From: Escherichia phage mobillu
DNA length: 64,000 bases
Sequence record: MN850622.1
Strand: one strand, 5' to 3'
The notes beneath the pieces are model-generated. The model saw nothing but the letters and a program-made list of their open reading frames with translations. It ran no database searches and had not been told where the DNA came from. This document shows, one piece after another, positions 1 to 64,000 of the stretch (within the stretch, counting starts at the first letter, position 1; the number at the start of each line of letters is the position of its first letter). The position numbers and the translations under genes were made by a program.

Positions 1-851
1 AATCAAAATCAAGTCTTGCTCGTCCACAAATTATTGATGCAATTTTAGATGCACTGAAATTCAGCACAGACACTTATTTTGTAAGTCCTGAAACTGTTCG
101 TCGTGATTTCACTAAAGAATTCTATACGAAAGTTATTGATCGTTGTGAAAGCATTCAACCATTGATTGATTCATTTGGTAAAATCACACATGTGAACTAC
201 ACTAAGATTGGACGTCTGAAGCCAATGCTGAAACAAGCTTTAGAACACCTTATTCGTTATCATAACCGTTCTCAGGGACAGTACTCTGTTATTCATGGTG
301 ACCCGAACTTCAGTAATACTATGATTACTGATAACGGCGAAGTCAAGTTTATCGACCCTCGTGGATATTTTGGCGAAACCAAGATTTACGGGCCAAAATT
401 GTATGATGAAGCTAAAGTGCTTTATGCTGTTTCAGGTTATGATGAATTCAATGCTAATCCGACCTGGGGACAGTTTACTATTGATGAAACAACTTGTAAT
501 GTGACTATTAACATCAATCCATTAGTTTACAAATATGGAAAGATGAGTTCGTTTAACGAGTATCATCATTTGGCTGTAGCAATTATCTGGATTGCATTAG
601 GTGGTTATTTCAAGAATAATCCACTTAAAGCGGTAGCCGCATATTATAAAGGTATGGAACTTCTGACTAAGCAATTACGTAACATGGGCCGTGTACTTCA
701 AGACGGCTCTATTAGTTATGACGTAGCAGAACCTGTAACGGCTACTCTGATTACAAAAAATCCTGGTAAATGGGTACTAACTGATAAAGAAACTGGTGTT
801 TCCTATCGTCCAATCGGTGGCGATATCACTCATCAATGGGAACGAATCTAA
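1..851 (+). CDS. protein-kinase-like (APH/choline-kinase fold) phosphotransferase, 5-prime truncated at window edge
   Basis: Reading frame open from nt 3 with no stop and no ATG before the window start; catalytic-loop-like VIHGDPNFSNTMI and FIDPRGYFG motifs; stop TAA 849-851. Confidence 0.55.
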   Translation, partial: SKSSLARPQIIDAILDALKFSTDTYFVSPETVRRDFTKEFYTKVIDRCESIQPLIDSFGKITHVNYTKIGRLKPMLKQALEHLIRYHNRSQGQYSVIHGDPNFSNTMITDNGEVKFIDPRGYFGETKIYGPKLYDEAKVLYAVSGYDEFNANPTWGQFTIDETTCNVTININPLVYKYGKMSSFNEYHHLAVAIIWIALGGYFKNNPLKAVAAYYKGMELLTKQLRNMGRVLQDGSISYDVAEPVTATLITKNPGKWVLTDKETGVSYRPIGGDITHQWERI

Positions 852-1237
852 TGCACCGTGTAGAAAACATGCTTAATCTTTGTTTTGATGTCGATGATTG
901 TATAACAGAGTGGAATAACAATCGTGATTACGTGAACTTCAAACCAGACGTCGAAATGGTGTCTGCCATTAATGCCCTGTATGATGCAGGGCATACCATA
1001 ACGCTTTACACTGCTCGCGGTATGAAGTCAGTAGGTCCTGGTCGTATAGCAATTGACATTCTCCCAAGTCTGATTCAGAACTTGGCAAACATTGGCTTGA
1101 AGTACCATAATTTGCTAACACATAAACCAGTATATGATTGGATTATCGACGACAAAGCTATGCGTCCTGACGAATTCAAAGCTCTTATGAATAAAGGCGA
1201 ATTCGAAACATTTAAATCATATAAACCAAATCTATAA
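851..1237 (+). CDS. small HAD-superfamily-like phosphatase (possible 5-prime(3-prime)-nucleotidase type)
   Basis: TAATG overlap with upstream stop; N-terminal FDVDDC (DxD) motif, TLYTARG, and C-terminal K...IIDDK resembling HAD motifs I-IV; alternative start 836. Confidence 0.5.
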   Translation: MHRVENMLNLCFDVDDCITEWNNNRDYVNFKPDVEMVSAINALYDAGHTITLYTARGMKSVGPGRIAIDILPSLIQNLANIGLKYHNLLTHKPVYDWIIDDKAMRPDEFKALMNKGEFETFKSYKPNL

Positions 1238-1294
1238 TAATTTAAGTAAGACCTGCAAAAACCATCGCATCAATTAACGTGAGATGCAAAAAAA

Positions 1295-2455
1295 ATGAAT
1301 ACTTTTAAAATCGGAACGAATTTTGATTTAGCTCTTCTTGATAAAATCGTAGAGCTCAATAAAACTTATCCTAATAGCTTGATAAACGAAGTATACGGCT
1401 CTACAAGAGAAATGGCTTTTGTAGCAGCCAGACCTGATTTTAGGCTTCCTGACGTTGACAAAAAGATGTTAGAAGATTACGTTAAACGTTGTAACGAATT
1501 AGGTATTTGCTTTAACTATACACTCAACACGATAAATCCTGGTTCAAAAAGAGAACTAGTTGAGTGGAAGAAGAAAGCTATTCAGGATTATGTTCAGTAT
1601 CTTTGGTCAATAGGCGTATGGCGTATTACTATCGCTAACCCTGTTGTTATGGAAATTGTTCGTGAAGTCAATAAAGACATTGAGATTGAAGTTTCAACAA
1701 TTCTACATGTCGATGCTGTAACTCAAATCAAATACTTGCATGACCAGTATAATATCAAAAAGGTCTGCTGTGGAATTCATAAGAACCGTTCAGTTTCTTT
1801 CCTGAAGCGTGCAGCAGAGTTTTGCAATAAGAACAATATAATATTTGAAGTTCTTGTAAATGAGTTCTGTTCTAATGCTGGTAAAGGGTATACAACACAT
1901 TGTAGCTATCGTGACTCTTGCTATATTTTCCATAGTACTGATGTTACAGCTGATGATGCTAAATCCTTAAACGGATATCCTATGCAGCACTGTATTAAAG
2001 CTCGTGATACAGACCCATTTAACTGGTTGAGAACTCGTTTTGTTCGTCCTCAAGATTTGAAACTTTATAATGATATTGGTATCACTCAATTCAAAGTTTC
2101 AGGACGTACAGGTAGCACAGACTACATTTTGAAAGTTCTTGAAGCATACGCTTCTGAAAAGTTTGAAGGTAATTTGTTAGAACTGTGGAAGCCTTTAGAG
2201 ACTATTTTCACTCTTGAAAATGAGACCGAGTTTTCACATACGGTAAATATTGAAACCTCTTTGTTAGATGGCTTTTTAGAAAAAAGGTGGTTCAGACATC
2301 CAGATTTCGATTGTGCTAATGAAATCTGCGGGACGACGTGTACATATTGTGAAAGATATTATAAACGTCAGTTATCTAAAAATGGGTTATCAGAAAATTC
2401 TATATCTATTATTGATATAACTAACTCTGATGACGCTTTGAGGTACCCAGAATGA
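1295..2455 (+). CDS. peptidase U32-family protein (RlhA/TrhP/UbiU-like putative Fe-S prephenate-dependent hydroxylase)
   Basis: 386 aa; N-terminal layout and FKVSGRTGSTDY segment resemble U32 KIEGR region; multiple Cys incl. C-terminal CxxxxCxxxCxxC; assignment from memory of family motifs. Confidence 0.5.
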   Translation: MNTFKIGTNFDLALLDKIVELNKTYPNSLINEVYGSTREMAFVAARPDFRLPDVDKKMLEDYVKRCNELGICFNYTLNTINPGSKRELVEWKKKAIQDYVQYLWSIGVWRITIANPVVMEIVREVNKDIEIEVSTILHVDAVTQIKYLHDQYNIKKVCCGIHKNRSVSFLKRAAEFCNKNNIIFEVLVNEFCSNAGKGYTTHCSYRDSCYIFHSTDVTADDAKSLNGYPMQHCIKARDTDPFNWLRTRFVRPQDLKLYNDIGITQFKVSGRTGSTDYILKVLEAYASEKFEGNLLELWKPLETIFTLENETEFSHTVNIETSLLDGFLEKRWFRHPDFDCANEICGTTCTYCERYYKRQLSKNGLSENSISIIDITNSDDALRYPE

Positions 2456-2691
2456 TTTCTAGAAAAACTTTTAACCACCAACTTAATGAAGAGATTTTGA
2501 CTATGAAAATTAACAGCAACGAACAAATTCTTAAAAAGGCCCTTATGGGCCTGTTTGAAACTAAAGCGGCTAAAGTGATTAAAGGACCTGTTCAATTGGA
2601 ATACTACGCTGATGCATTTCTTCATAGTGTTCTTGGAAGTATCGATGCTGAAGCTTTACGTTATATCAACATTGTCAAGAAATTCAAATAA
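2452..2691 (+). CDS. hypothetical protein
   Basis: ATGA start/stop overlap with upstream gene; 79 aa; no recognisable motif. Confidence 0.45.
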   Translation: MISRKTFNHQLNEEILTMKINSNEQILKKALMGLFETKAAKVIKGPVQLEYYADAFLHSVLGSIDAEALRYINIVKKFK

Positions 2692-2714
2692 GCTTTACGA
2701 ATTGAGTATATAAT
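2692..2714 (+). promoter_or_regulatory. putative middle promoter for gene 42 (MotA box GCTTTA + TATAAT)
   Basis: aGCTTTAcgaattgagtaTATAAT, box-to--10 gap 11 nt. Confidence 0.35.
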
Positions 2715-2733
2715 AAATTGTATTGAGGTAAAC

Positions 2734-3450
2734 ATGGGAAAACATAACACAATGAAATATATCAAAGCCGCAGATTTTCAAACCGCATTTAAAGCAGTCA
2801 ATCGTGAAATTTTAGAAAACCCGGAATTCGTAACTGATTCTCGTATTGGACGTTGTAATGAAATTGGGTCTATGACAGTAGTTGTTGACACTCCATCATC
2901 ATTCAAAATGACCGACCCACGTATTAACCGCATCTCTTATGAATACGCCGAAGATTTCTGGAAGTTTATGATTTCTGGTGGTACCAACGCAGAAGAAGCG
3001 TTTAAGGCATATCCTAATGTCGCTAAATTTATTTCTAAACCAAAATCAGATGTTTTGCCGGCGAACTTCAACACTTTCTACGGTCCTCGCATTGCGGCCC
3101 AATTACCAGCTCTTCTAAAAGAACTTAAAGAGAAGCCTAACTCCCGAAGAGTTGTGTTCCAAATTCTAGAAAGTTCTGATCAGGCTTTGCTTGATTCAGA
3201 CGAAACGCTTGAATATCCATGTACTGACTCAGTGACTTATTATATTCGTGATGGTAAGCTTTATACCCACTGTCATATGCGTTCTCAGAACTGTGCTGTT
3301 GTTATGCAGTTGGATTTTTATCTCCAAGGAAAATTACTTCATTATATCGCTAACGAATGTGGTGTAGAAGTTGGTGATTATACTCATACCATGGTAAGTG
3401 CCCATGTGTTTGAACGTGATTTTGATTATGTTAAAGGATTCCTTGACTAA
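2734..3450 (+). CDS. 42: dCMP hydroxymethylase (thymidylate-synthase superfamily), gene 42 homolog
   Basis: GAGGT RBS; SRR and YPCTD catalytic-Cys motif, MRSQN motif, Asp at position +31 from catalytic Cys (equivalent to T4 gp42 Asp179 / TS Asn177); syntenic with T4 gene 42 next to uvsX. Confidence 0.75.
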   Translation: MGKHNTMKYIKAADFQTAFKAVNREILENPEFVTDSRIGRCNEIGSMTVVVDTPSSFKMTDPRINRISYEYAEDFWKFMISGGTNAEEAFKAYPNVAKFISKPKSDVLPANFNTFYGPRIAAQLPALLKELKEKPNSRRVVFQILESSDQALLDSDETLEYPCTDSVTYYIRDGKLYTHCHMRSQNCAVVMQLDFYLQGKLLHYIANECGVEVGDYTHTMVSAHVFERDFDYVKGFLD

Positions 3451-4349
3451 TGGCTATTTTCCGCGTACCAATCTTGAGTATGCGGTCTTATGAAACTGGA
3501 CAGTATGCTATCCTTAAGGATGGCAACTTCCAACTTCATTTGCACCGTGCTAATCCAGGTGATGTGATTACATATCCACGTAATGCATCTGATATTAAAG
3601 AATGCGAACGTCTTTTCCCAGAATTTAAGTTTGTTCCATTATGGTATAAAGATAACGCGTATAACACTCGTAAATATTTCTGGTCTGAAAATGAATTTGT
3701 GGTTGATTCATTAATTGCTTATTATGATTGTGATTTTCTAATCACAGATATCACCGGATATGACGGTGCTTTTGATGTAGAATTCAATTTCAATATCACT
3801 GCAGACCCTAATAAACCACGTTTTTATATTGACGAATTCTTAAAAACCGACATGTTGTCGGTTAATCGTTCACTTCAAACTACTGTGTTGAACGAACGTC
3901 AAAAAGAAGTGCTGGTTAACGCAGGTGCAGATGGTAATAAGATTATCGTAACGCAGAAAGTTATACGTCCTTCCATCATGCAGCGTCTTGTAGGTGATTT
4001 GGCTCCTATTCATCTAGATGGTATTTTTCATCCATTTCGAATTAGCGACCCGTGCTATCGTTTTGAACAAGTGGTTGAATGTGCAATTCAATTAGGCCAA
4101 CCGCTTTATATAACCGATCCAAATAATAGCTTCGACAGAAATAAGTATCCTGAAGAAGCGCTGATTCGAATTTTTAAACCAACTAAAACTGAGTACTATC
4201 AAATTCTTAAAGGACGTCCGAAAATTCAATATTTCGAAAATCCTGAAGAAGTATTCCATCCAGGTCTTGGTGAGTTCATCTACTTTAATGCTTTAATTTC
4301 TTCGCCGTATAATATACCTAAATATGAAGATGTCGTAATCGAGGAATAA
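3450..4349 (+). CDS. hypothetical protein in beta-gt syntenic slot (possible transferase)
   Basis: TAATG coupling to gene 42; 299 aa; no recognisable similarity to T4 beta-glucosyltransferase by eye. Confidence 0.5.
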   Translation: MAIFRVPILSMRSYETGQYAILKDGNFQLHLHRANPGDVITYPRNASDIKECERLFPEFKFVPLWYKDNAYNTRKYFWSENEFVVDSLIAYYDCDFLITDITGYDGAFDVEFNFNITADPNKPRFYIDEFLKTDMLSVNRSLQTTVLNERQKEVLVNAGADGNKIIVTQKVIRPSIMQRLVGDLAPIHLDGIFHPFRISDPCYRFEQVVECAIQLGQPLYITDPNNSFDRNKYPEEALIRIFKPTKTEYYQILKGRPKIQYFENPEEVFHPGLGEFIYFNALISSPYNIPKYEDVVIEE

Positions 4350-4350
4350 A

Positions 4351-4899
4351 ATGGCTAAAATTATTTTAGTAGATGGCCCAGATAATGCTGGTAAAACAAC
4401 TTTCATTAATGACATAATGGAAATTAGTGAAAGATATGTAAAGATTGATTTCCCTAAACGAACAGTTGATGGGCGTTTCGATGTTAAGTCTCGAAATGAA
4501 GTTGGCTGCTTCGAAACGATGTTGAATTATTTAGACCCTACTAAGATTTATCTGTTAGACCGTGGATATATTAGTAACTGGGTTTATGGACGTATTCGAC
4601 AAGATGCGGACTCGGTTCTTGACGTTTATGAACAGGATTATGTTCGTCTTTGCCAAAACCATGATGTGTTCACAATTATTTTAACACGTAACGAAATGAC
4701 TGAAAGTTTTGAAGACGACCTTATTACTTTGTCTTCATTCGGTTTTAATACAGTCATTTCACATTTTGAAGAGTTTGCAATTCATAACAAAATCCAAACG
4801 TATCAATTACTTAATCATGATGGTGCTAACAAAGTTATAGGATTTAATGCAAGCGAACGTAATTATTTGATTACAGAAATTATCAAATGGGCTCGTTAA
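4351..4899 (+). CDS. P-loop nucleotide/nucleoside kinase-like protein (TMPK/dNK-like)
   Basis: Walker A VDGPDNAGKTT near N-terminus; LDRGYISNWVYG resembles DR(Y/H) motif of thymidylate/deoxynucleoside kinases. Confidence 0.6.
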   Translation: MAKIILVDGPDNAGKTTFINDIMEISERYVKIDFPKRTVDGRFDVKSRNEVGCFETMLNYLDPTKIYLLDRGYISNWVYGRIRQDADSVLDVYEQDYVRLCQNHDVFTIILTRNEMTESFEDDLITLSSFGFNTVISHFEEFAIHNKIQTYQLLNHDGANKVIGFNASERNYLITEIIKWAR

Positions 4900-4919
4900 G
4901 AGCCATTTAAAGTTTTAAA

Positions 4920-4944
4920 TGCTGTATAACCCTTAGTATATAAT
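4920..4944 (+). promoter_or_regulatory. putative middle promoter for uvsX (MotA-box-like TGCTGTA + TATAAT)
   Basis: aaaTGCTGTAtaacccttagtaTATAAT. Confidence 0.3.
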
Positions 4945-4997
4945 CATCTTATCTTTTAAACATGAGTAAAATATAATGATGCCTATGGAAAAATACA

Positions 4998-6170
4998 ATG
5001 TCTGATTTAAAATCTCGTTTGATTAAAGCTTCTACTTCTAAAATGACTGCAGACTTGACTAAGTCTAAGCTGTTTAATAATCGCGATGAAGTCCCTACTC
5101 GTATTCCAATGTTGAATATTGCACTAGGTGGTGCACTGAATGCCGGGTTGCAATCAGGCTTGACTATTTTTGCTGCTCCTTCTAAACACTTTAAAACGTT
5201 GTTTGGACTGACCATGGTTGCAGCATATATGAAGAAATATAAAGATGCAATCTGTTTGTTTTATGACTCAGAATTCGGTGCTTCGGAATCTTATTTTCGT
5301 TCAATGGGTGTTGATTTAGACCGTGTAGTTCATACTCCGATTCAATCGGTCGAACAACTTAAGGTTGATATGACTAATCAGCTTGACGCGATTGAACGCG
5401 GTGATAAAGTTATTATCTTTATTGACTCGATTGGTAATACTGCATCTAAGAAAGAAACCGAAGATGCATTGAACGAGAAAGTTGTAGGTGATATGTCTCG
5501 TGCTAAGGCACTTAAATCTCTGTTCCGCATTGTGACCCCGTATCTGACTATTAAAGATATTCCGTGTGTTGCAATTAACCATACAGCAATGGAAATCGGC
5601 GGATTGTATCCTAAAGAGATTATGGGCGGTGGTACAGGTATTCTTTATTCTGCCAACACGGTATTTTTTATCTCTAAACGTCAGGTTAAAGAAGGTACAG
5701 AATTGACCGGTTATGACTTCACGTTGAAAGCAGAAAAATCTCGCACAGTTAAAGAGAAATCTACTTTCCCGATCACGGTTAATTTTGATGGCGGTATTGA
5801 CCCATTCAGTGGCTTGTTAGAAATGGCAACTGAAATTGGTTTTGTAGTTAAGCCTAAAGCTGGTTGGTATGCTCGTGAATTCCTTGACGAAGAAACAGGT
5901 GAAATGATTCGTGAAGAAAAATCATGGCGTGCTAAAGCTACTGATTGTGTAGAATTCTGGGGACCTTTGTTTAAACACAAACCTTTCCGAGATGCAATTG
6001 AAACTAAATATAAACTAGGTGCTATCTCTTCTATTAAAGAAGTTGATGACGCTGTTAACGACCTTATTAATTGCAAAGCAACAACTAAAGTTCCGGTTAA
6101 AACTTCTGATGCTCCATCTGCAGCAGATATAGAAAACGACCTTGACGAAATGGAAGATTTCGATGAATAA
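4998..6170 (+). CDS. uvsX: UvsX RecA-like recombinase
   Basis: 390 aa; strong N-terminal and core similarity to T4 UvsX; synteny uvsX-40-41. Confidence 0.95.
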   Translation: MSDLKSRLIKASTSKMTADLTKSKLFNNRDEVPTRIPMLNIALGGALNAGLQSGLTIFAAPSKHFKTLFGLTMVAAYMKKYKDAICLFYDSEFGASESYFRSMGVDLDRVVHTPIQSVEQLKVDMTNQLDAIERGDKVIIFIDSIGNTASKKETEDALNEKVVGDMSRAKALKSLFRIVTPYLTIKDIPCVAINHTAMEIGGLYPKEIMGGGTGILYSANTVFFISKRQVKEGTELTGYDFTLKAEKSRTVKEKSTFPITVNFDGGIDPFSGLLEMATEIGFVVKPKAGWYAREFLDEETGEMIREEKSWRAKATDCVEFWGPLFKHKPFRDAIETKYKLGAISSIKEVDDAVNDLINCKATTKVPVKTSDAPSAADIENDLDEMEDFDE

Positions 6171-6504
6171 TCTCGATGATTTAAATCTAGAAATCGTTGA
6201 TGAATCCCCTTCTTCGGAAGGGGAAGACATTCGCAAAGAACGAGTGTTTAATGAATCTCTTAAAATTGTCCGTTCAGCAATGGAAAATGTCATTCAAGAG
6301 ATTCTGATTACACTTGAAGACGGTTCCCATCATATAGTCTATATTACAAAACTAGACTGGGTTGATGGTAAAATCGTAATGGACTTTGCAGTTCTTGACC
6401 AGGACAGAAAAGCAGAACTTGCACCGCACGTTGAAAAATGTGTTACAATGCAAGTACAACAAGCTTTTAATGAACGAACCAAGAAAAAATTTAAATTCTT
6501 TTAA
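6163..6504 (+). CDS. 40: gp40-like head vertex assembly chaperone
   Basis: 113 aa, ATG overlapping uvsX stop; position between uvsX and 41 as in T4. Confidence 0.5.
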   Translation: MNNLDDLNLEIVDESPSSEGEDIRKERVFNESLKIVRSAMENVIQEILITLEDGSHHIVYITKLDWVDGKIVMDFAVLDQDRKAELAPHVEKCVTMQVQQAFNERTKKKFKFF

Positions 6505-6513
6505 GGAGTTATC

Positions 6514-7956
6514 GTGGTAGAAATTATTTTGTCTCATCTAGTATATGACCAGGCTTATTTTTCTAAGGTCTGGCCTTATATGGATTCTGAGTATTTTGAG
6601 CGTGGACCGGCAAAAAATGTCTTTAAAATTATAAAGAGCCACGTTAACGAATATAATGCAATGCCATCTATCAATGCGTTAAAGGTGGCTTTAGATAACA
6701 GTTCTTTAACTGAAGCCGAATATAAAGGAACTTCAGACCTAATTGAAAAATTGGCTGATACTCCTGAAGACCATGAATGGTTGGTTAAAGAAACTGAGAA
6801 ATATGTCCAGCAAAAAGCGATGTATAATGCTACATCCAAAATCATTGAGATTCAGTCTAATGCTGAACTACCTCCAGAACAACGTAACAAGAAAATGCCT
6901 GACGTAGGAGCTATTCCTGATATTATGCGTCAAGCACTTTCAATTTCGTTTGATAGTTATGTTGGTCATGACTGGATGGAAGACTACGAAGCACGCTGGC
7001 TTTCTTATCTAAATAAAGCACGTAAGGTCCCGTTCAAATTAAACATTTTGAATAAAATCACTAAAGGTGGTGCTGAAACAGGTACACTAAACGTTTTAAT
7101 GGCCGGTGTTAACGTTGGTAAATCTTTAGGCCTTTGTTCACTTGCTGCAGATTATCTTCAAACAGGTCATAACGTTCTTTATATTTCTATGGAAATGGCT
7201 GAAGAAGTTTGTGCTAAGCGTATAGATGCAAACATGCTTGACGTATCACTCGATGATATCGATGATGGTAACGTATCTTATGCTGAATATAAAGCCAAGA
7301 TGGAAAAATGGCGTTCAAAAACAACATTAGGACGTTTAGTAGTTAAACAGTATCCCACTGGTGGAGCTAATGCTAATACATTTCGTGCATTGCTTAATGA
7401 GTTAAAACTTAAGAAGAACTTTGTGCCATCTGTAATCATGGTTGATTACTTAGGTATTTGTGGGTCTTGTCGTATCAGAGTTTACACTGAAAATAGCTAC
7501 ACATTAGTTAAAGCTATCGCAGAAGAACTTCGTGCATTAGCAGTAGAATCTGAAACAGTTCTATGGACTGCAGCTCAAGTAGGACGGGCAGCATGGGATG
7601 CTTCGGATATGAACATGAGCGATATTGCAGAATCAGCAGGTTTACCAGCAACGGCAGATTTCATGTTGGCCGTAATTGAAACCGAAGAACTTGCACAAGC
7701 TGAACAACAACTTATCAAACAAATCAAATCACGATACGGCGATAAGAATAAGTGGAATAAATTCCTGATGGGTGTACGTAAAGGCAACCAGAAATGGATT
7801 GAGATTGAGCAAGAAGGCATGAACACACCTAACACAGTAAATGAAAACGCAGGTGCTCAGATGCGTCAGGCAGAGGTGAATCGTACGGAACGCGTAGGTA
7901 AAGCCAAAGCAACACGTGCTGACCTAGATAGCTTAGCCAATGAGTTAAAATTTTAA
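6514..7956 (+). CDS. 41: gp41 replicative DnaB-like helicase
   Basis: 480 aa, GTG start after AAGGAG; N-terminus MVEIILSHL...YFSKVWPYMDSEYFE matches T4 gp41; Walker A GVNVGKS. Confidence 0.95.
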   Translation: MVEIILSHLVYDQAYFSKVWPYMDSEYFERGPAKNVFKIIKSHVNEYNAMPSINALKVALDNSSLTEAEYKGTSDLIEKLADTPEDHEWLVKETEKYVQQKAMYNATSKIIEIQSNAELPPEQRNKKMPDVGAIPDIMRQALSISFDSYVGHDWMEDYEARWLSYLNKARKVPFKLNILNKITKGGAETGTLNVLMAGVNVGKSLGLCSLAADYLQTGHNVLYISMEMAEEVCAKRIDANMLDVSLDDIDDGNVSYAEYKAKMEKWRSKTTLGRLVVKQYPTGGANANTFRALLNELKLKKNFVPSVIMVDYLGICGSCRIRVYTENSYTLVKAIAEELRALAVESETVLWTAAQVGRAAWDASDMNMSDIAESAGLPATADFMLAVIETEELAQAEQQLIKQIKSRYGDKNKWNKFLMGVRKGNQKWIEIEQEGMNTPNTVNENAGAQMRQAEVNRTERVGKAKATRADLDSLANELKF

Positions 7957-7962
7957 TAAAAA

Positions 7963-7983
7963 GGAGACTTCGGTCTCCTTTCG
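7963..7983 (+). terminator. UUCG-tetraloop hairpin terminator after gene 41
   Basis: ggagaCTTCGgtctcc followed by short T-run. Confidence 0.55.
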
Positions 7984-7985
7984 GG

Positions 7986-59466: not shown

Positions 59467-60553
<1,087 letters not shown>

Positions 60554-60745
60554 ATGAAACGATTATATGAAGTGATTGAGGCCATCGAACAGCATAAAGA
60601 ATATTTGTTTGTAGCCTGGCCTTTAGTAAATGGACAGTTCGGTATTGATGTGCTGGACTATGAGCATGAAGAACGTTTGGACGGTGGTATATTTGATAAC
60701 GTCGACCAGGCAATTGAATGGTTAAATGAAAACTATGTACGATAA
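60554..60745 (+). CDS. hypothetical protein
   Basis: 63 aa. Confidence 0.45.
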   Translation: MKRLYEVIEAIEQHKEYLFVAWPLVNGQFGIDVLDYEHEERLDGGIFDNVDQAIEWLNENYVR

Positions 60746-60950
60746 ACATCATGAAATCGAAGATGAAGCATACAAAATGCTTCGTAAACTAGTGGGACTT
60801 AATATGAGTCCTACATTAATCAACAAACTCGCAGGAATTCGTAATGATCTGAATACTCGTTACAAAGGTGAATATCATGTAGAGTTTGTTCCTGTAGGTG
60901 AACCAACCGAGCGATTTGTTGTTCGAGTTAAAGTAAATACTGTGCACTGA
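60726..60950 (+). CDS. hypothetical protein
   Basis: 74 aa; start uncertain. Confidence 0.4.
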   Translation: MKTMYDKHHEIEDEAYKMLRKLVGLNMSPTLINKLAGIRNDLNTRYKGEYHVEFVPVGEPTERFVVRVKVNTVH

Positions 60951-60957
60951 GGTAATT

Positions 60958-61233
60958 ATGTTCCCAACTTATTCTGAAATTGTAAAGGTAGTCTTCAGTC
61001 AGATTATTGCTAATAATATGTTTGAAGTGCTTGATAATGCAGCCGAACTCAGAGTTCATGCTCAACTAACTCATGTACTCAATGCTTTGCTCCCAGACCA
61101 AGTAGATTCTATTGCTATTACTCTTCTCCCTGGGTCTGCACACGTCATAGTGGTATTTGATCTTGACGGCGATTTAGTTATCCAATGTGATATCAATTTC
61201 GGTACACAAAAAATTGAATGCAAAGCAATTTAA
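60958..61233 (+). CDS. hypothetical protein
   Basis: 91 aa. Confidence 0.45.
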   Translation: MFPTYSEIVKVVFSQIIANNMFEVLDNAAELRVHAQLTHVLNALLPDQVDSIAITLLPGSAHVIVVFDLDGDLVIQCDINFGTQKIECKAI

Positions 61234-61235
61234 TG

Positions 61236-61265
61236 GTTTACAACATGGTGGAGTTGTGATACTAT
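61236..61265 (+). promoter_or_regulatory. T4-type early promoter heading the unit that contains DAHP synthase and cd
   Basis: GTTTAC + 18 + TACTAT. Confidence 0.55.
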
Positions 61266-61293
61266 AACTCTACCAACAAATGAGGAAATAGAA

Positions 61294-61530
61294 ATGCTAA
61301 GTGAAAACCCAATTACAGTACACGAATTTCAGATTAAAGTAAAAGAATTTGCTCAAGCACTCATCAATAAAGTGTCTGAACGTTTCCAAGATGCAACATT
61401 ACGAGTTATTCAAGAATCTCCACGTTCTTTTCTCATAATCGTTAATCCTAAAGATGGTGACCAAATTACTAATCTTAAATTATGCAGTGATGGTCTTGTT
61501 GAAGCAACTCGAGTATATGGATCACTATAA
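61294..61530 (+). CDS. hypothetical protein
   Basis: 78 aa after early promoter. Confidence 0.5.
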   Translation: MLSENPITVHEFQIKVKEFAQALINKVSERFQDATLRVIQESPRSFLIIVNPKDGDQITNLKLCSDGLVEATRVYGSL

Positions 61531-61650
61531 TGAGAGCTATCTCGTTACTATCGAGAATGCTCATAAATCTGAGCACTACCAACTTAGCCTGTCTAATCCG
61601 GTTAAAGGTATTGTTGAATCAGAATCTGTTTATATCTTCTAAGGATTGTT

Positions 61651-62643
61651 ATGTTACCTGTCGTCGGAAAACTTATTTCTCCAAAAGAACTGGCTGAGAT
61701 TATTCCTTTGTCGGAAGCTTACGCATCACAAGTGGCTTCTCATCGCGAACAAGTTAATTCGATTATGAACGGTGAAGACCCACGCAAACTTATTGTTGTA
61801 GGTCCTTGTTCAATTCATGACCCTATTGCTGCTGTTGAATACGGCAAACGTCTGGCTGAACTTCAAACTCGTCTTCCTAATGTTCTGTTAGTGATGCGCG
61901 TTTATTTTGAAAAGCCTCGAACTACCGTAGGTTGGAAAGGTCTTGTAAATGATCCATATCTTGACGGAAGTTTTGATATGAACCACGGTCTTATAGTTGC
62001 ACGAACATTGTGTCGTAAACTTCTACGTATGGGACTTCCATTAGCAACTGAAGTATTAGACCCATTCACGATTAAGTATCTTTCTGGTATTTTCTCATGG
62101 GTTGCTATTGGCGCCCGTACGACTGAAAGTCAGACACATCGTGAAATTGCTTCAGGTCTACCGATGTGCGTAGGCTTCAAGAACGCAACCAATGGTTCTA
62201 TTAAAGTAGCTACAGACGCGATGTATAGTGCCGCCAGGCCTCATCGGTATATGGGTATGGACGTCGATGGTACTGTAGGCATTGTTGAAGCTGAAGGTAA
62301 TCAGAATACGCATATCGTATTGCGTGGCGGGACCAACGGCCCGAACTATCATTCTTCTGATATTCAAGAAGCTTCTAACAAAGCAAGTGCAGTAGGTCTG
62401 AATCATTATGTAATGGTTGACTGTAGCCATGCAAACGCTGCTGGGCATTATAGCAATCAAATTGGTATTGGTAAAAATTTAGCAGCTAATGATTTGGTCA
62501 AAGGAATTATGATAGAATCATTCCTACATGAAGGAAATCAAAAAATTTCTAATAATATGTCCTATGGCGTTTCCGTTACCGATGCGTGCATCAGTTGGGA
62601 ACAAACTAAAGAGCTGTTAACTTATATTAATAAGGTTCAATAA
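61651..62643 (+). CDS. 3-deoxy-D-arabino-heptulosonate 7-phosphate (DAHP) synthase, class I (AroG-like)
   Basis: 330 aa; VGPCSIHDP, RVYFEKPRTTVGWKGLVNDP, GARTTESQTHRE, ESFLHEGNQ, TDACISWE closely track E. coli AroG; lacks about 20 N-terminal residues. Confidence 0.9.
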   Translation: MLPVVGKLISPKELAEIIPLSEAYASQVASHREQVNSIMNGEDPRKLIVVGPCSIHDPIAAVEYGKRLAELQTRLPNVLLVMRVYFEKPRTTVGWKGLVNDPYLDGSFDMNHGLIVARTLCRKLLRMGLPLATEVLDPFTIKYLSGIFSWVAIGARTTESQTHREIASGLPMCVGFKNATNGSIKVATDAMYSAARPHRYMGMDVDGTVGIVEAEGNQNTHIVLRGGTNGPNYHSSDIQEASNKASAVGLNHYVMVDCSHANAAGHYSNQIGIGKNLAANDLVKGIMIESFLHEGNQKISNNMSYGVSVTDACISWEQTKELLTYINKVQ

Positions 62644-63224
62644 TGAAAGCTAGCACATATCTTCAAATTGCTTATTTGATTTCTCAAGAATCAAAATGTT
62701 GTTCATGGAAAGTTGGTGCCGTCATTGAAAAAGATGGACGCATTATTTCTACAGGTTATAATGGCTCTCCTTCAGGTGGTACAAACTGTTGCGAACATGC
62801 ATCCGAAAACGGTTGGTTGAAGAATAAACCAAGCCCGGTCATCGTTGCTGGGCATAAAGAAGGCACTACAGCATTTGGACGGGTGGATAATTTTGTTTTG
62901 GCTAAAGAACATCGGGCCGCTCATAGTGCATGGTCTGCTAATAATGAAATCCATGCTGAACTGAATGCAATTTTATTTGCAGCTCGTAAAGGTAATTCTA
63001 TTGAAGGTGCTACGTTATATACGACGCTTTCTCCGTGTCCTGATTGCACTAAAGCTATTACACAGTCAGGTATTAAAAAGGTTGTATATGCAGAATTATA
63101 CGACCGATCTCCTGAAAATTGGGCAGACATTCTAAAACAAGCCGGTATTGAAGTAATTCAGTACTCTCGTAATAATCTTCGTTCTCTGAATTGGGAACAA
63201 ATCCGAAACTTTTGTGGTGAATAA
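62643..63224 (+). CDS. cd: dCMP deaminase
   Basis: 193 aa; HAELNAI and SPCPDCTKAI zinc-binding deaminase motifs; TAATG-coupled. Confidence 0.9.
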   Translation: MKASTYLQIAYLISQESKCCSWKVGAVIEKDGRIISTGYNGSPSGGTNCCEHASENGWLKNKPSPVIVAGHKEGTTAFGRVDNFVLAKEHRAAHSAWSANNEIHAELNAILFAARKGNSIEGATLYTTLSPCPDCTKAITQSGIKKVVYAELYDRSPENWADILKQAGIEVIQYSRNNLRSLNWEQIRNFCGE

Positions 63225-63225
63225 T

Positions 63226-63522
63226 ATGATTTTAACTGAACAAGAAACTATGGTTCTTCGTGAACGTATTAAAACTATTCTGTCTGTAGGCGTTCATTGT
63301 GTTGTATTTGAAAAGGCTAACGGTGAGGTACGCGCTATGTTTGCTTCTCGCGATGAACTTGAAGTCAAATATGAAAATAACAATCCGGCATCAGAAGTTC
63401 GTTCTGAACCTCGTGAATCAGTTCGAGCATTCGATACCAAGTTAGGTCAGTGGCGTTCTTTCCGCCTTGATAAAGTAATTTCGGTTGATGGTACTCCGGT
63501 AGAACGTTTGCTTCTTATGTAA
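63226..63522 (+). CDS. hypothetical protein
   Basis: 98 aa from ATG 63226. Confidence 0.45.
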   Translation: MILTEQETMVLRERIKTILSVGVHCVVFEKANGEVRAMFASRDELEVKYENNNPASEVRSEPRESVRAFDTKLGQWRSFRLDKVISVDGTPVERLLLM

Positions 63523-63524
63523 TA

Positions 63525-63549
63525 TGCTTTACGAATAGTATGGTATTAT
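63525..63549 (+). promoter_or_regulatory. putative middle promoter for gene 31
   Basis: aTGCTTTAcgaatagtatggTATTAT. Confidence 0.35.
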
Positions 63550-63579
63550 TAATCTATCGTCAAACAACAAGGAAATAAG

Positions 63580-63912
63580 ATGTCTGAAGTACAACTCCCA
63601 ATTCGTGCTGTTGGTGAATATGTCATTCTGGTTTCTGAACCCGCTCAAGCAGGTGATGAAGAAGTTACCGAATCAGGACTTGTGATTGGTAAACGTGTTC
63701 AAGGTGAAGTTCCTGAACTATGTGTAGTTCATTCTGTAGGTCCTGATGTTCCTGAAGGTTTTGTTGAAGTCGGTGATTTGACTCCACTACCAGTTGGACA
63801 AATTCGAAATGTTCCACATCCATTTGTGGCTTTGGGACTTAAACAACCTAAAGAAATTAAACAGAAATTCGTAACATGCCACTATAAAGCTATTCCGTGT
63901 CTTTATAAGTGA
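63580..63912 (+). CDS. 31: gp31 co-chaperonin (GroES-like)
   Basis: 110 aa; [34 protein letters not shown]...[14 protein letters not shown] matches T4 gp31. Confidence 0.9.
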
Positions 63913-64000
63913 TATAAATAACTATATGAAGAGAACACTCTTCTAAGCGGTAGCCTACAACTGAGAGACTTGTCGAAAGAAGGTGAAATTCAGAAGAACG

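Follow-up and report, generated by a model that had tools for sequence, protein, structure and literature searches.

The stretch of DNA analysed here (the window) covers 64,000 nucleotides of Escherichia phage mobillu (MN850622.1) and carries a gene for a DAHP synthase (3-deoxy-7-phosphoheptulonate synthase, hereafter DAHPS) between pseT and cd, as an earlier sequence-only reading had placed it. The features of this locus are as follows.

59654..60553, pseT
61236..61265, plus strand, T4-type early promoter-like site (GTTTACA-N17-TACTAT, with TGa before TACTAT)
61294..61530, plus strand, small cd.2-like ORF (DUF7320), the gene that leads the presumed early transcript
61527..61539, unstranded, left copy of a 13-nt direct repeat, ATAATGAGAGCTA, flanking the 1,113-bp DAHPS cassette
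61530..61697, plus strand, small candidate ORF of 55 aa within the DAHPS cassette, its first codons resembling the cd start
61651..62643, plus strand, DAHPS, a type I-alpha DAHP synthase of 330 aa belonging to a phage-specific clade
62640..62652, unstranded, right-hand copy of the direct repeat (13 nt), ATAATGAAAGCTA, at the start of cd
62643..63224, plus strand, cd, dCMP deaminase, directly 3' of DAHPS and overlapping its stop

The DAHPS start codon is preceded by a ribosome-binding site (AAGGA, 8 nt 5' of the ATG) and its stop codon overlaps the start of cd in the sequence TAATG. An early promoter had been proposed at about 61236, and the site there was found to be part of a T4-type motif with 18 occurrences against 0.93 expected, 17 of the 18 being on the coding (plus) strand. 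It sits in the sole upstream intergenic gap (61234-61293), 385 nt 5' of DAHPS. A generic sigma-70 scan returned 10 sites against 12.9 expected, leaving the T4-specific motif alone as significant. From this context DAHPS is presumed to be transcribed early. The pseT-DAHPS-cd slot is common to Tequatro/Mosig-, Kanagawa-, Marfa-, Winkler-, Braga- and Kagamiyamavirus. Phage JK36 is without DAHPS and keeps the right repeat copy only, a loss that reads at sequence level as a clean recombination between the 13-nt repeats. Phage JK45 annotates an ORF in another frame from that of 61530..61697, equivalent to 61490..61642 of the window.

Assignment of the 330-aa ORF to the class-I DAHP synthases was borne out by its matches to Pfam DAHP_synth_1 (PF00793; E=1.8e-75, 253.8 bits, cutoff 25.5), to NCBIfam TIGR00034 aroFGH (428.6 bits, cutoff 173.2) and NF009395 (456 bits, cutoff 343), and in the PDB to E. 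coli AroF (6agm, E=5e-105) as the top match. The motifs on which the earlier assignment drew, VGPCSIHDP, KPRTTVGWKGLVNDP and GARTTESQTHRE, are all found in the translation. The label 'AroG-type' did not hold, as the protein falls under the AroG equivalog cutoff (NF006723; 364.8 against 568) and also under that for AroH (NF009396; 385.7 against 463), and of the E. coli paralogs AroF is the nearest with 51% identity, compared with 47% for AroG and 44% for AroH. With AroF it also shares a Gly at the position of AroG residue 211.

The fold and family are those of AroF, AroG and AroH (TIGR00034; PDB 6agm, 1kfl), and the residues that bind metal and substrates are identical. C53, H260, E289 and D311 correspond to the metal-ligand tetrad C61, H268, E302 and D326 of AroG, and the residues for phosphoenolpyruvate (PEP) and erythrose-4-phosphate (E4P) are present as R83, K88-P-R-T91, G154-A-R156, K177 and R225 (R92, K97-P-R-T100, G163-A-R165, K186 and R234 in AroG). 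Both sets are invariant across six phage genera and in 126/126 aligned homologs, and the enzyme is predicted on this basis to be catalytically competent, converting PEP and E4P to DAHP. Phylogenetically the phage proteins form one monophyletic clade, spanning 55-99% identity over at least six genera at a fixed locus, with the closest cellular relatives 49-55% identical. The clade is old and phage-specific, and the family has been annotated before in ~190 phage genomes (PHROG 5045).

In the inhibitor pocket the phage enzyme departs from its cellular relatives. In the alignment AroG P150, Q151, D155 and S180 are replaced by I141, K142, G146 and P171, and this I/K/G/P combination was found in 26/26 phage DAHPS clusters, while P-Q-D-S was found in 86/100 of the nearest cellular homologs. 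The protein had been said to lack about 20 N-terminal residues. A truncation of that size is ruled out, as only residues 1-9 of AroG (1-10 of AroF) are without a counterpart, a segment which includes AroG D6/D7 and AroF N8; the remainder of an overall difference of 20-26 aa lies in internal gaps and a shorter C-terminus. In AroG the substitutions P150L and S180F confer feedback resistance, and Q151 and S180 touch the inhibitor (PMC9529685). Given a rebuilt pocket and the absence of the N-terminal strand that closes it, the phage DAHPS is predicted to ignore feedback by Phe, Tyr and Trp. It is changed at the same positions as the engineered feedback-resistant alleles (AroG P150L, S180F and D146N, and the AroF N-terminal mutants), but its changes are natural, multiple and invariant throughout the clade, and its deregulation is a prediction from the alignment. 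The invariant I-K-G-P pocket could instead bind a new effector. That the phage enzymes make up a single clade whose inhibitor pocket is remodelled and invariant is new here.

The U32 gene to which DAHPS had been linked, about 59 kb away, was confirmed at a distance of 59.2 kb, within a cluster for 5-hydroxycytosine/arabinose DNA modification at the other end of the window.

162..851, plus strand, C-terminal kinase part of a bifunctional nucleotidyltransferase/kinase (RB69 gp52:53 / AfhE-like), the gene continuing beyond the window start
836..1237, plus strand, HAD-type phosphatase (RB69 gp51 / AfhF-like) of the UDP-arabinose pathway
1295..2455, plus strand, U32-family Fe-S protein of 386 aa, putative prephenate-dependent hydroxylase
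2452..2691, plus strand, 79-aa ORF in the slot that holds chorismate mutase in other genera, found in the E. coli-phage lineage only
2734..3450, plus strand, thymidylate-synthase homolog with a 5-hydroxy-dCMP synthase signature (E. coli ThyA L143E, D169N, N177D)
3450..4349, plus strand, phrog_3891 protein (RB69 gp46:47-like), putative DNA arabinosyltransferase
4351..4899, plus strand, thymidylate-kinase-like nucleotide kinase (RB69 gp45-like)

The cluster is that of the arabinosyl-5-hydroxycytosine phages RB69, HY126 and DLP3 (Lee et al. 2026; He et al. 2026; Mahler et al. 2025), with which it shares the AfhE/AfhF-like genes, a 5-hydroxy-dCMP synthase with D169N/N177D, the glycosyltransferase and the kinase. 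The DAHPS of HY126 is 97.6% identical to that of mobillu. Lee et al. (2026) labelled the U32 homolog RB69 gp50 a 'sugar or heterocycle reductase' and made no mention of DAHPS, chorismate mutase or prephenate. No paper linking phage DAHPS to U32 was found in a search that stopped short of the contents of He et al. 2026 and Mahler et al. 2025, and a Tn-seq preprint on Bas46/LC53 held no data for the DAHPS or U32 genes.

The U32 gene follows the UDP-arabinose genes and precedes the gene for the 5-hydroxy-dCMP synthase. Its product matches Pfam PF01136 (Peptidase_U32) with 42.2 bits (cutoff 22.4), and its structure model (pLDDT 92.4) has the U32 structure 5d88 as best PDB match (E=4e-7). It shares the U32 domain and fold with UbiU/UbiV, RlhA and TrhP, and three cysteines, C203, C209 and C233, which are invariant in 25 family members, align with the Fe-S ligands C169, C176 and C193 of UbiU; the fourth UbiU ligand, C232, has no aligned Cys in the phage protein, where C158, C177 and C192 are also invariant. 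It differs from these cellular proteins in forming a distinct subfamily with only a weak UbiU match (E=9e-4), in an extra invariant C-terminal CX4CX3CX2C motif and in sitting among deoxynucleotide genes. Across genera the phage U32 proteins are 81-100% identical. Other large phage contigs encode homologs, 48-58% identical, whose genes adjoin those for dCMP deaminase, Tmk, dNK and NT5C. A 250-aa gene that follows U32 in megaphage contigs was considered as a ThyA homolog and rejected, as there was no similarity.

Prephenate is the oxygen donor for UbiUV, where dependence on the aro pathway is established, and is the proposed donor for the U32 RNA hydroxylases RlhA and TrhP; hydroxylation in vitro has so far been shown for no U32 protein (PMC10990095). 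The product of RlhA, 5-hydroxycytidine, reflects the same base chemistry as that proposed for the phage U32. The hydroxylation route of the ThyA homologs requires O2 (PMC13326640), and the gene at 2734..3450 is, by its signature, assigned to this O2/flavin-dependent route.

At least 51 records, and Bragavirus in addition, have a CM_2 chorismate mutase (AroQ type, PF01817) with U32 as its direct neighbour on one side and the ThyA homolog on the other. In the mobillu lineage the slot is occupied by the unrelated ORF 2452..2691, and the lineage is without a recognisable chorismate mutase, which is one counterpoint to a phage-encoded prephenate supply. The idea that the ORF is a cryptic chorismate mutase was rejected: there was no Pfam (E<=10) or NCBIfam (E<=1) match and no BLASTP similarity to the Entb_45 enzyme, and homology to Entb_45 stops exactly at the U32 stop and restarts at the start of the ThyA homolog. 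Its homologs are confined to the E. coli lineage and often truncated, and its AlphaFold model (pLDDT 62) was too weak for a structure search. No chorismate mutase-like frame was found across the 64-kb window.

Co-occurrence of DAHPS and U32 across T4-like genomes had been suggested as a check of their link, and it was found. DAHPS was found in 212 records and U32 in 221, with a union of 242 and hence ~191 with both, against a base of ~759 T-even-like records; these are counts per record obtained by set arithmetic, dominated by one E. coli-phage clade and amounting to ~8-10 independent lineages. DAHPS is almost never alone, with at most one phage-type record (60-80% identity) and a few fragments lacking U32, the other DAHPS-only records being bacterial contigs or fragments. 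Fecal 'Bacteriophage sp.' contigs were rejected as independent phage lineages of DAHPS, since one of them (L022) is bacterial chromosome (MnmA, IscS-like, XerC/D) in which a weak 'UbiU' match is MnmA. The presence/absence profile of DAHPS was drawn up without Shewanella phage Thanatos and Pectobacterium phage PM2. The Dhakavirus JS98 and the Acinetobacter phage DLP3 have the 5-hydroxycytosine/arabinose cluster and are without U32, chorismate mutase and DAHPS. As Dhakaviruses infect E. coli with the modification cluster and without U32 or DAHPS, the two genes are not an obligatory module. A division by host physiology, with U32 absent for aerobic hosts and present for facultative anaerobes, fits DLP3 and is broken by JS98. 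Yersinia phages and Serratia phage 92A1 have U32 (and chorismate mutase) without DAHPS. DAHPS is also missing from JK36 and from a mar005P1 record, although both were isolated as viable phages. Together the co-occurrence, the chorismate mutase beside U32 and the joint absence in JS98 and DLP3 bear out the suggestion that DAHPS is functionally tied to U32, a link that comparison of the sequences strongly supports.

Cases of this kind, the clean loss in JK36 and the Yersinia phages that retain U32 and chorismate mutase, might be taken to indicate that DAHPS is a dispensable passenger, held by linkage and with no selected function. This is extremely improbable in a clade so diverse and so constant in its locus, since the invariance of catalytic and pocket residues argues for purifying selection, not drift. 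A role as a generic auxiliary metabolic gene, in which DAHPS (with chorismate mutase) boosts Phe, Tyr and Trp for phage protein synthesis and is unrelated to U32, has the merit that DAHPS is the flux-controlling step to the aromatic amino acids and that a deregulated enzyme would lift their supply. Earlier authors list it as an auxiliary metabolic gene of unknown function, and its PHROG category is 'moron, auxiliary metabolic gene'. Such a role is nevertheless unlikely, as it leaves unexplained the restriction of DAHPS to U32-bearing phages, its absence from the U32-less Dhakavirus and Acinetobacter phages, and the presence of a chorismate mutase inside a DNA-modification cluster.

The association with an arabinose-5-hydroxycytosine cluster could also be read in terms of sugar supply, with DAHPS as an E4P sink drawing the non-oxidative pentose-phosphate pathway towards ribulose-5-phosphate, arabinose-5-phosphate and UDP-arabinose for DNA arabinosylation. 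The cluster does use ribulose-5-phosphate, and BASEL labels DAHPS a 'putative aldolase' and U32 an 'enzyme involved in UDP-arabinose biosynthesis'. However, the U32-less arabinosylating phages JS98 and DLP3 manage without DAHPS, the chorismate mutase is left without a role, and the unchanged E4P/PEP residues give no indication of a new sugar substrate, so that this reading is decidedly improbable. More improbable still is that chorismate is made for another product during infection (pABA/folate, quinones or siderophores). T4-like phages rely on folates, chorismate is a branch point and the mobillu lineage has no chorismate mutase of its own; but most genera pair DAHPS with a chorismate mutase, which steers chorismate to prephenate and off pABA and quinones, the ThyA homolog of these phages has shifted from folate to flavin chemistry, and no further chorismate-using gene was found within the window.

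In the reading preferred here DAHPS, with or without chorismate mutase, acts as a phage module that supplies prephenate to a U32 enzyme hydroxylating without O2 in the course of DNA hypermodification. This reading is regarded as reasonably probable in view of the identity of the enzyme, its intact catalytic residues and altered pocket, the early-promoter context, the co-occurrence and the synteny. We infer the feedback insensitivity, the use of prephenate, what U32 acts on and its role under anoxia. Even with aromatic amino acids in plenty, DAHPS would push carbon into the shikimate pathway of the host, and host AroB-AroC would convert DAHP to chorismate. In most genera a chorismate mutase of the phage would take chorismate on to prephenate, a step left to host PheA/TyrA in the E. 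coli-phage lineage of mobillu. The U32 Fe-S enzyme would then consume prephenate as stoichiometric oxygen donor, acting as an O2-independent C5 hydroxylase on a cytosine nucleotide (or DNA) and backing up the ThyA-homolog route during anaerobic growth of the host. On a rough estimate ~6.5e4 cytosines per genome and 100-200 progeny would demand ~1e7 molecules of prephenate per cell, far more than rRNA and tRNA hydroxylation need, which would explain why a phage should carry flux-controlling enzymes. A further counterpoint is that six host enzymes are required from DAHP to chorismate. The fullest form of the proposal, a first viral prephenate-dependent, O2-independent pathway in which U32, in the absence of O2, provides 5-hydroxycytosine nucleotides (or acts as the hydroxylase on DNA itself) for arabinosyl hypermodification, with the oxygen donor from a feedback-insensitive DAHPS and, in most genera, chorismate mutase, is given a little less than an even chance.

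Parallel O2-independent and O2-dependent enzymes like the U32 protein and the ThyA homolog are known in UbiUV and UbiIHF and in TrhP and TrhO. T4 itself has aerobic and anaerobic ribonucleotide reductases (NrdAB and NrdDG), a precedent among T4-like phages, although their chemistry differs and the comparison may serve as an analogy only. We know of no cellular U32 system that bundles precursor enzymes (DAHPS, chorismate mutase) as the virus does.

The 5-hydroxycytosine/arabinose hypermodification was elucidated only in 2025-2026, and its known hydroxylase is O2-dependent, while host gut bacteria often grow anoxically. U32 together with phage DAHPS and phage chorismate mutase offers a concrete, testable mechanism. 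If true, this would be the first virus to rewire the shikimate pathway for a DNA-modification co-substrate; the shikimate pathway would become a DNA-modification pathway, U32 chemistry would reach deoxynucleotides beyond RNA and quinones, and phage DNA would provide the read-out of a tractable in vivo system for U32/prephenate hydroxylation. The related U32 genes beside dCMP deaminase in gut megaphage contigs would then hint at a wide spread. The phage DAHPS, as a natural scaffold with predicted feedback resistance, may serve metabolic engineering. Phages of the Mosigvirus type are common candidates for phage therapy, and both oxygen and the aromatic metabolism of the host may be needed for the protection of their DNA.

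The DAHP synthase gene of this phage (type I-alpha, DAHPS) lies in the order pseT, 3-4 small ORFs, DAHPS, cd and gene 31, and the open reading frames of the window place it as follows:

61651..62643, + strand, DAHPS ORF of 330 codons
62643..63224, + strand, cd (dCMP deaminase), the next gene 3' of DAHPS

A ribosome-binding site (AAGGA) precedes the start by 8 nt and the ATG of cd shares bases with the DAHPS TAA stop. The protein matched Pfam DAHP_synth_1 (E=1.8e-75), NCBIfam TIGR00034 'aroFGH' (428.6 bits, cutoff 173) and the NCBIfam subfamily NF009395 (456 bits, cutoff 343), and the closest solved structure was E. coli AroF (6agm, E=5e-105), with AroG (1kfl, 1e-91) second. The sequence-only reading was thus correct in calling a DAHP synthase between pseT and cd, and the three motifs it quoted were all found in the translation. 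Its label 'AroG-type' does not hold, as AroF is nearer (51% identity, against 47% for AroG and 44% for AroH) and the NCBIfam equivalog cutoffs were missed for both AroG (365 against 568) and AroH (386 against 463). The gene itself is already annotated (PHROG 5045, many GenBank records) and has been named as a Mosigvirus auxiliary metabolic gene of unknown function (10.1101/2020.01.19.911818). The window belongs to a T4-like phage, and positions 60500-64000 are 99.5% identical to Escherichia phages NicPhage and G53 and 99.4% identical to Shigella phage JK45. JK45 and JK36 are 97-99% identical here, yet are filed as Tequatrovirus jaykay and Mosigvirus mar005p1, so the genus recorded in the taxonomy of the window's nearest relatives cannot be relied on.

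The second gene of interest encodes a U32 protein:

1295..2455, + strand, U32 protein of 386 aa (Peptidase_U32 domain, 42 bits, cutoff 22.4)

A deep-alignment AlphaFold model (pLDDT 92.4) had as its best PDB match 5d88, the sole U32-family structure among matches that were otherwise generic TIM barrels. The neighbours are an AfhE-like nucleotidyltransferase/kinase, an AfhF-like HAD phosphatase, a thymidylate-synthase (ThyA) homolog, a phrog_3891 protein, a Tmk-like kinase and uvsX, surroundings which by gene content are the arabinosyl-5-hydroxycytosine hypermodification cluster described for RB69, DLP3 and HY126 (PMC13326640). The published residue signature of 5-hydroxy-dCMP synthases (L143E/D169N/N177D) is present in the ThyA homolog, and the 5-hydroxy-dCMP hydroxylase uses flavin and O2 (PMC13326640). 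That paper labels the U32 homolog of RB69, gp50, a 'sugar or heterocycle reductase' and makes no mention of U32, prephenate, chorismate or DAHP.

Cysteines C203, C209 and C233 are invariant in 25 members of the phage U32 subfamily and align with C169/C176/C193 of UbiU, C170/C177/C193 of TrhP and C169/C176/C192 of RlhA; in UbiU they are three of the four 4Fe-4S ligands established by experiment (10.1101/587956). UbiU/V has been shown to take its oxygen from prephenate, which is also the proposed donor for two U32 enzymes that hydroxylate RNA, TrhP and the 5-hydroxycytidine-forming RlhA (PMC10990095). The phage subfamily also has an invariant CX4CX3CX2C motif near the C-terminus (C340, C345, C349, C352) and invariant C158, C177 and C192, all absent from E. 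coli UbiU, TrhP and RlhA, and these extra cysteines may form another metal-binding or Fe-S site. Metagenomic homologs at 48-58% identity number in the hundreds, among them:

L011:10001-11086, U32 homolog
L014:8776-9858, U32 homolog
L012:10001-11098, U32 homolog

On phage-like contigs of 466 kb and 60 kb the homolog directly follows dCMP deaminase, with Tmk, UDG, a DnaE-type polymerase and SSB nearby; on an anaerobe-like contig it lies beside NT5C, dNK, a nucleoside deoxyribosyltransferase, a radical SAM gene and a second U32-like gene. On these contigs no ThyA homolog was found within 10 kb. A deoxynucleotide as the proposed substrate of U32 is supported by the position of the gene inside the cluster, by its extreme conservation (81-100% across genera) and by the genes that adjoin the 48-58% homologs (dCMP deaminase, Tmk, UDG and a DnaE-type polymerase on large phage contigs; NT5C, dNK and a nucleoside deoxyribosyltransferase on the anaerobe-like contig).

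Directly 3' of U32 in Enterobacter phage Entb_45 is a bona fide chorismate mutase (CM; CM_2, 40.9 bits, cutoff 27), with homologs in the same slot of at least 51 records, from Klebsiella, Serratia, Yersinia, Enterobacter, Edwardsiella, Erwinia, Pectobacterium, EcS1, Shewanella, Providencia and Morganella phages. In two further phages the slot holds:

L024:5479-5853, 124-aa CM of Proteus phage phiP4-3 (43.4 bits)
2452..2691 of the window, 79-aa ORF overlapping the U32 stop (ATGA)

The phiP4-3 (Bragavirus) form, annotated only as hypothetical, has an N-terminal extension of ~50 residues and was missed by tblastn with the Entb_45 CM as query. The 79-aa ORF has the slot and length of the CM gene of other genera, yet is unrelated, with no resemblance to CM found by Pfam, NCBIfam or BLAST, and its structure model is of low confidence. 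DNA homology between the window and Entb_45 ends at the U32 stop and restarts at the ThyA-homolog start. Homologs of the ORF occur in E. coli phages only, at 81-96% identity against at least 99% for its neighbours, U32 included, and are often truncated to 47-58 aa. No CM-like reading frame was found anywhere in the 64 kb, and this phage would have to draw on host PheA/TyrA for CM activity. That the DAHPS supplies chorismate for folate or quinones is most improbable, being at odds with the presence of CM.

In tblastn searches 212 phage records had a DAHPS match and 221 a U32 match, and a concatenated query matched 242 records at 434 places; therefore ~191 records carry both, a figure obtained per database record by set arithmetic, in which one clade dominates and independent lineages number ~10. 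With ~759 records holding a PseT of 60% identity or more as the base rate, it follows that DAHPS and U32 single out one and the same quarter of the T-even-like phages. The co-occurrence expected from the sequence-only reading was thus found, and DAHPS-only cases were nearly all distant matches or fragments: 17 records with matches below 60% ('UNVERIFIED Bacteriophage sp.' fecal contigs, Acinetobacter MD-2021a contigs, a Salmonella contig and Aeromonas HJ05), one record at 60-80% and a few fragments. One fecal contig (MT835613.1) was rejected as a phage carrier, being bacterial chromosome (MnmA, IscS-like aminotransferase, XerC/D, polysaccharide flippase). Another (MT836486.1) also looks like bacterial chromosome, and its stop-to-stop frame holding DAHPS spans 589 aa with ~270 unexplained N-terminal residues. 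U32 occurs without DAHPS in Yersinia TG1 (a single place in the concatenated query), in at least some TG1-related phages as implied by the Yersinia record counts, and in Serratia 92A1, JK36, one mar005P1 record and fragments. In Dhakavirus JS98 the AfhE/AfhF/kinase/5hodCMP-synthase/glycosyltransferase cluster is present, but U32 is missing, the CM slot is empty and pseT and cd have no DAHPS between them; Acinetobacter phage DLP3 has the cluster without U32, and Acinetobacter DAHPS among the matches listed were distant (45-47% identity, on MD-2021a contigs). DAHPS thus tracks U32 and not arabinosylation as such, and the module is conditional rather than essential, as Dhakaviruses that lack U32 and isolates that lack DAHPS show. 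That DAHPS serves pentose supply by draining E4P is quite improbable, since JS98, DLP3 and CM all speak against it. A generic auxiliary metabolic gene for aromatic amino acids would account for DAHPS and CM together, but is unlikely, leaving unaccounted for both their restriction to U32 phages and the location of CM.

Alignment of DAHPS with five other phage homologs and E. coli AroF, AroG and AroH showed that the metal ligands (AroG C61/H268/E302/D326) and the PEP/E4P residues (R92, K97-P-R-T100, G163-A-R165, K186, R234) are all kept, the latter being identical in 126/126 homologs examined. The differences lie in the inhibitor pocket and the N-terminus. Only AroG 1-9 (AroF 1-10) has no counterpart, a stretch including AroG D6/D7 and AroF N8; the ~20 residues earlier said to be lacking are the whole length difference, including internal gaps and a shorter C-terminus. 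Ahead of the conserved Pro (AroG P19) stand 8-10 residues in phages, against a cellular median of 19. AroG P150, Q151, D155 and S180 are replaced by I, K, G and P in the enzyme of this phage and in 26/26 phage-clade members among the 120 closest database clusters, whereas 86/100 of the nearest cellular homologs keep P-Q-D-S. According to a review of DAHPS variants that resist feedback (PMC9529685), inhibition is lost in P150L and S180F, the main chain of the inhibitor is bound by Q151/Q152 and S180/S181, and D155 contributes a salt bridge that stabilises the structure. Since the altered positions match these sites, it is reasonable to predict that the phage enzyme is free of feedback inhibition; as the new residues are invariant, the rebuilt pocket could alternatively bind a different ligand. 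A neutral passenger gene is at odds with invariant catalytic and pocket residues and is the least credible explanation.

A generic sigma-70 scan of the window gave sites not above chance. Sites of the T4 early-promoter type, GTTTAC-N17-19-TAnnAT, number 18 where 0.93 would be expected; 17 are on the coding (+) strand and most have TG ahead of the -10 element. The nearest to DAHPS agrees with the early promoter previously placed at about 61236:

61236-61265, early-promoter-type motif in the sole intergenic gap upstream of DAHPS

Early transcription of DAHPS is well supported by the motif excess, this copy and the lack of any terminator-like site found between it and the gene. Upstream of the U32 cluster none of the motifs falls within positions 1-7985, the 18 sites spanning 7986-61265.

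In a neighbour-joining tree the phage DAHPS (319-343 aa) group as a single clade; the closest cellular enzymes, at only 49-55% identity, are those of Planctomycetota, Kiritimatiellota and Pseudomonadales and enterobacterial AroF. The gene sits in the pseT-cd slot in each of six viral genera (Tequatro/Mosigvirus, Kanagawavirus, Marfavirus, Winklervirus, Bragavirus, Kagamiyamavirus), which indicates an old acquisition retained by purifying selection. In JS98 a 184-aa hypothetical protein (orf212, L021:7556-8110) occupies this slot. The gene can be lost, as in JK36, where the flanks are contiguous, 1,113 bp are absent and one copy is retained of a repeat that flanks the cassette in the window:

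61527-61539 and 62640-62652, 13-nt direct repeats ATAATGA(G/A)AGCTA, ATAATGAGAGCTA / ATAATGAAAGCTA

The left repeat begins a small ORF whose first codons resemble the cd start.

Taken as a whole, a prephenate-supply module for an O2-independent U32 hydroxylase in DNA hypermodification is the reading favoured here, with some reservation. An early-expressed, feedback-insensitive DAHPS would send more flux into the host shikimate pathway, chorismate would be converted to prephenate by a phage or host enzyme, and prephenate would serve U32 as oxygen donor in an O2-independent C5 hydroxylation running parallel to the O2/flavin route of the ThyA homolog. As a rough estimate ~1e7 prephenate molecules would be needed per infected cell if it is a stoichiometric donor, a demand that would rationalise the carriage of flux-controlling enzymes by phages. 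Neither a full-text search, which left some subscription papers uncovered, nor term look-ups within individual papers found a link of U32, prephenate, CM or DAHPS to phage DNA modification. As the gene is known and this link was not found in the literature, what is rated as new is the apparent recruitment, together with CM, of a commonplace enzyme family, whose naturally altered pocket is predicted to be deregulated, into a viral DNA-hypermodification context.
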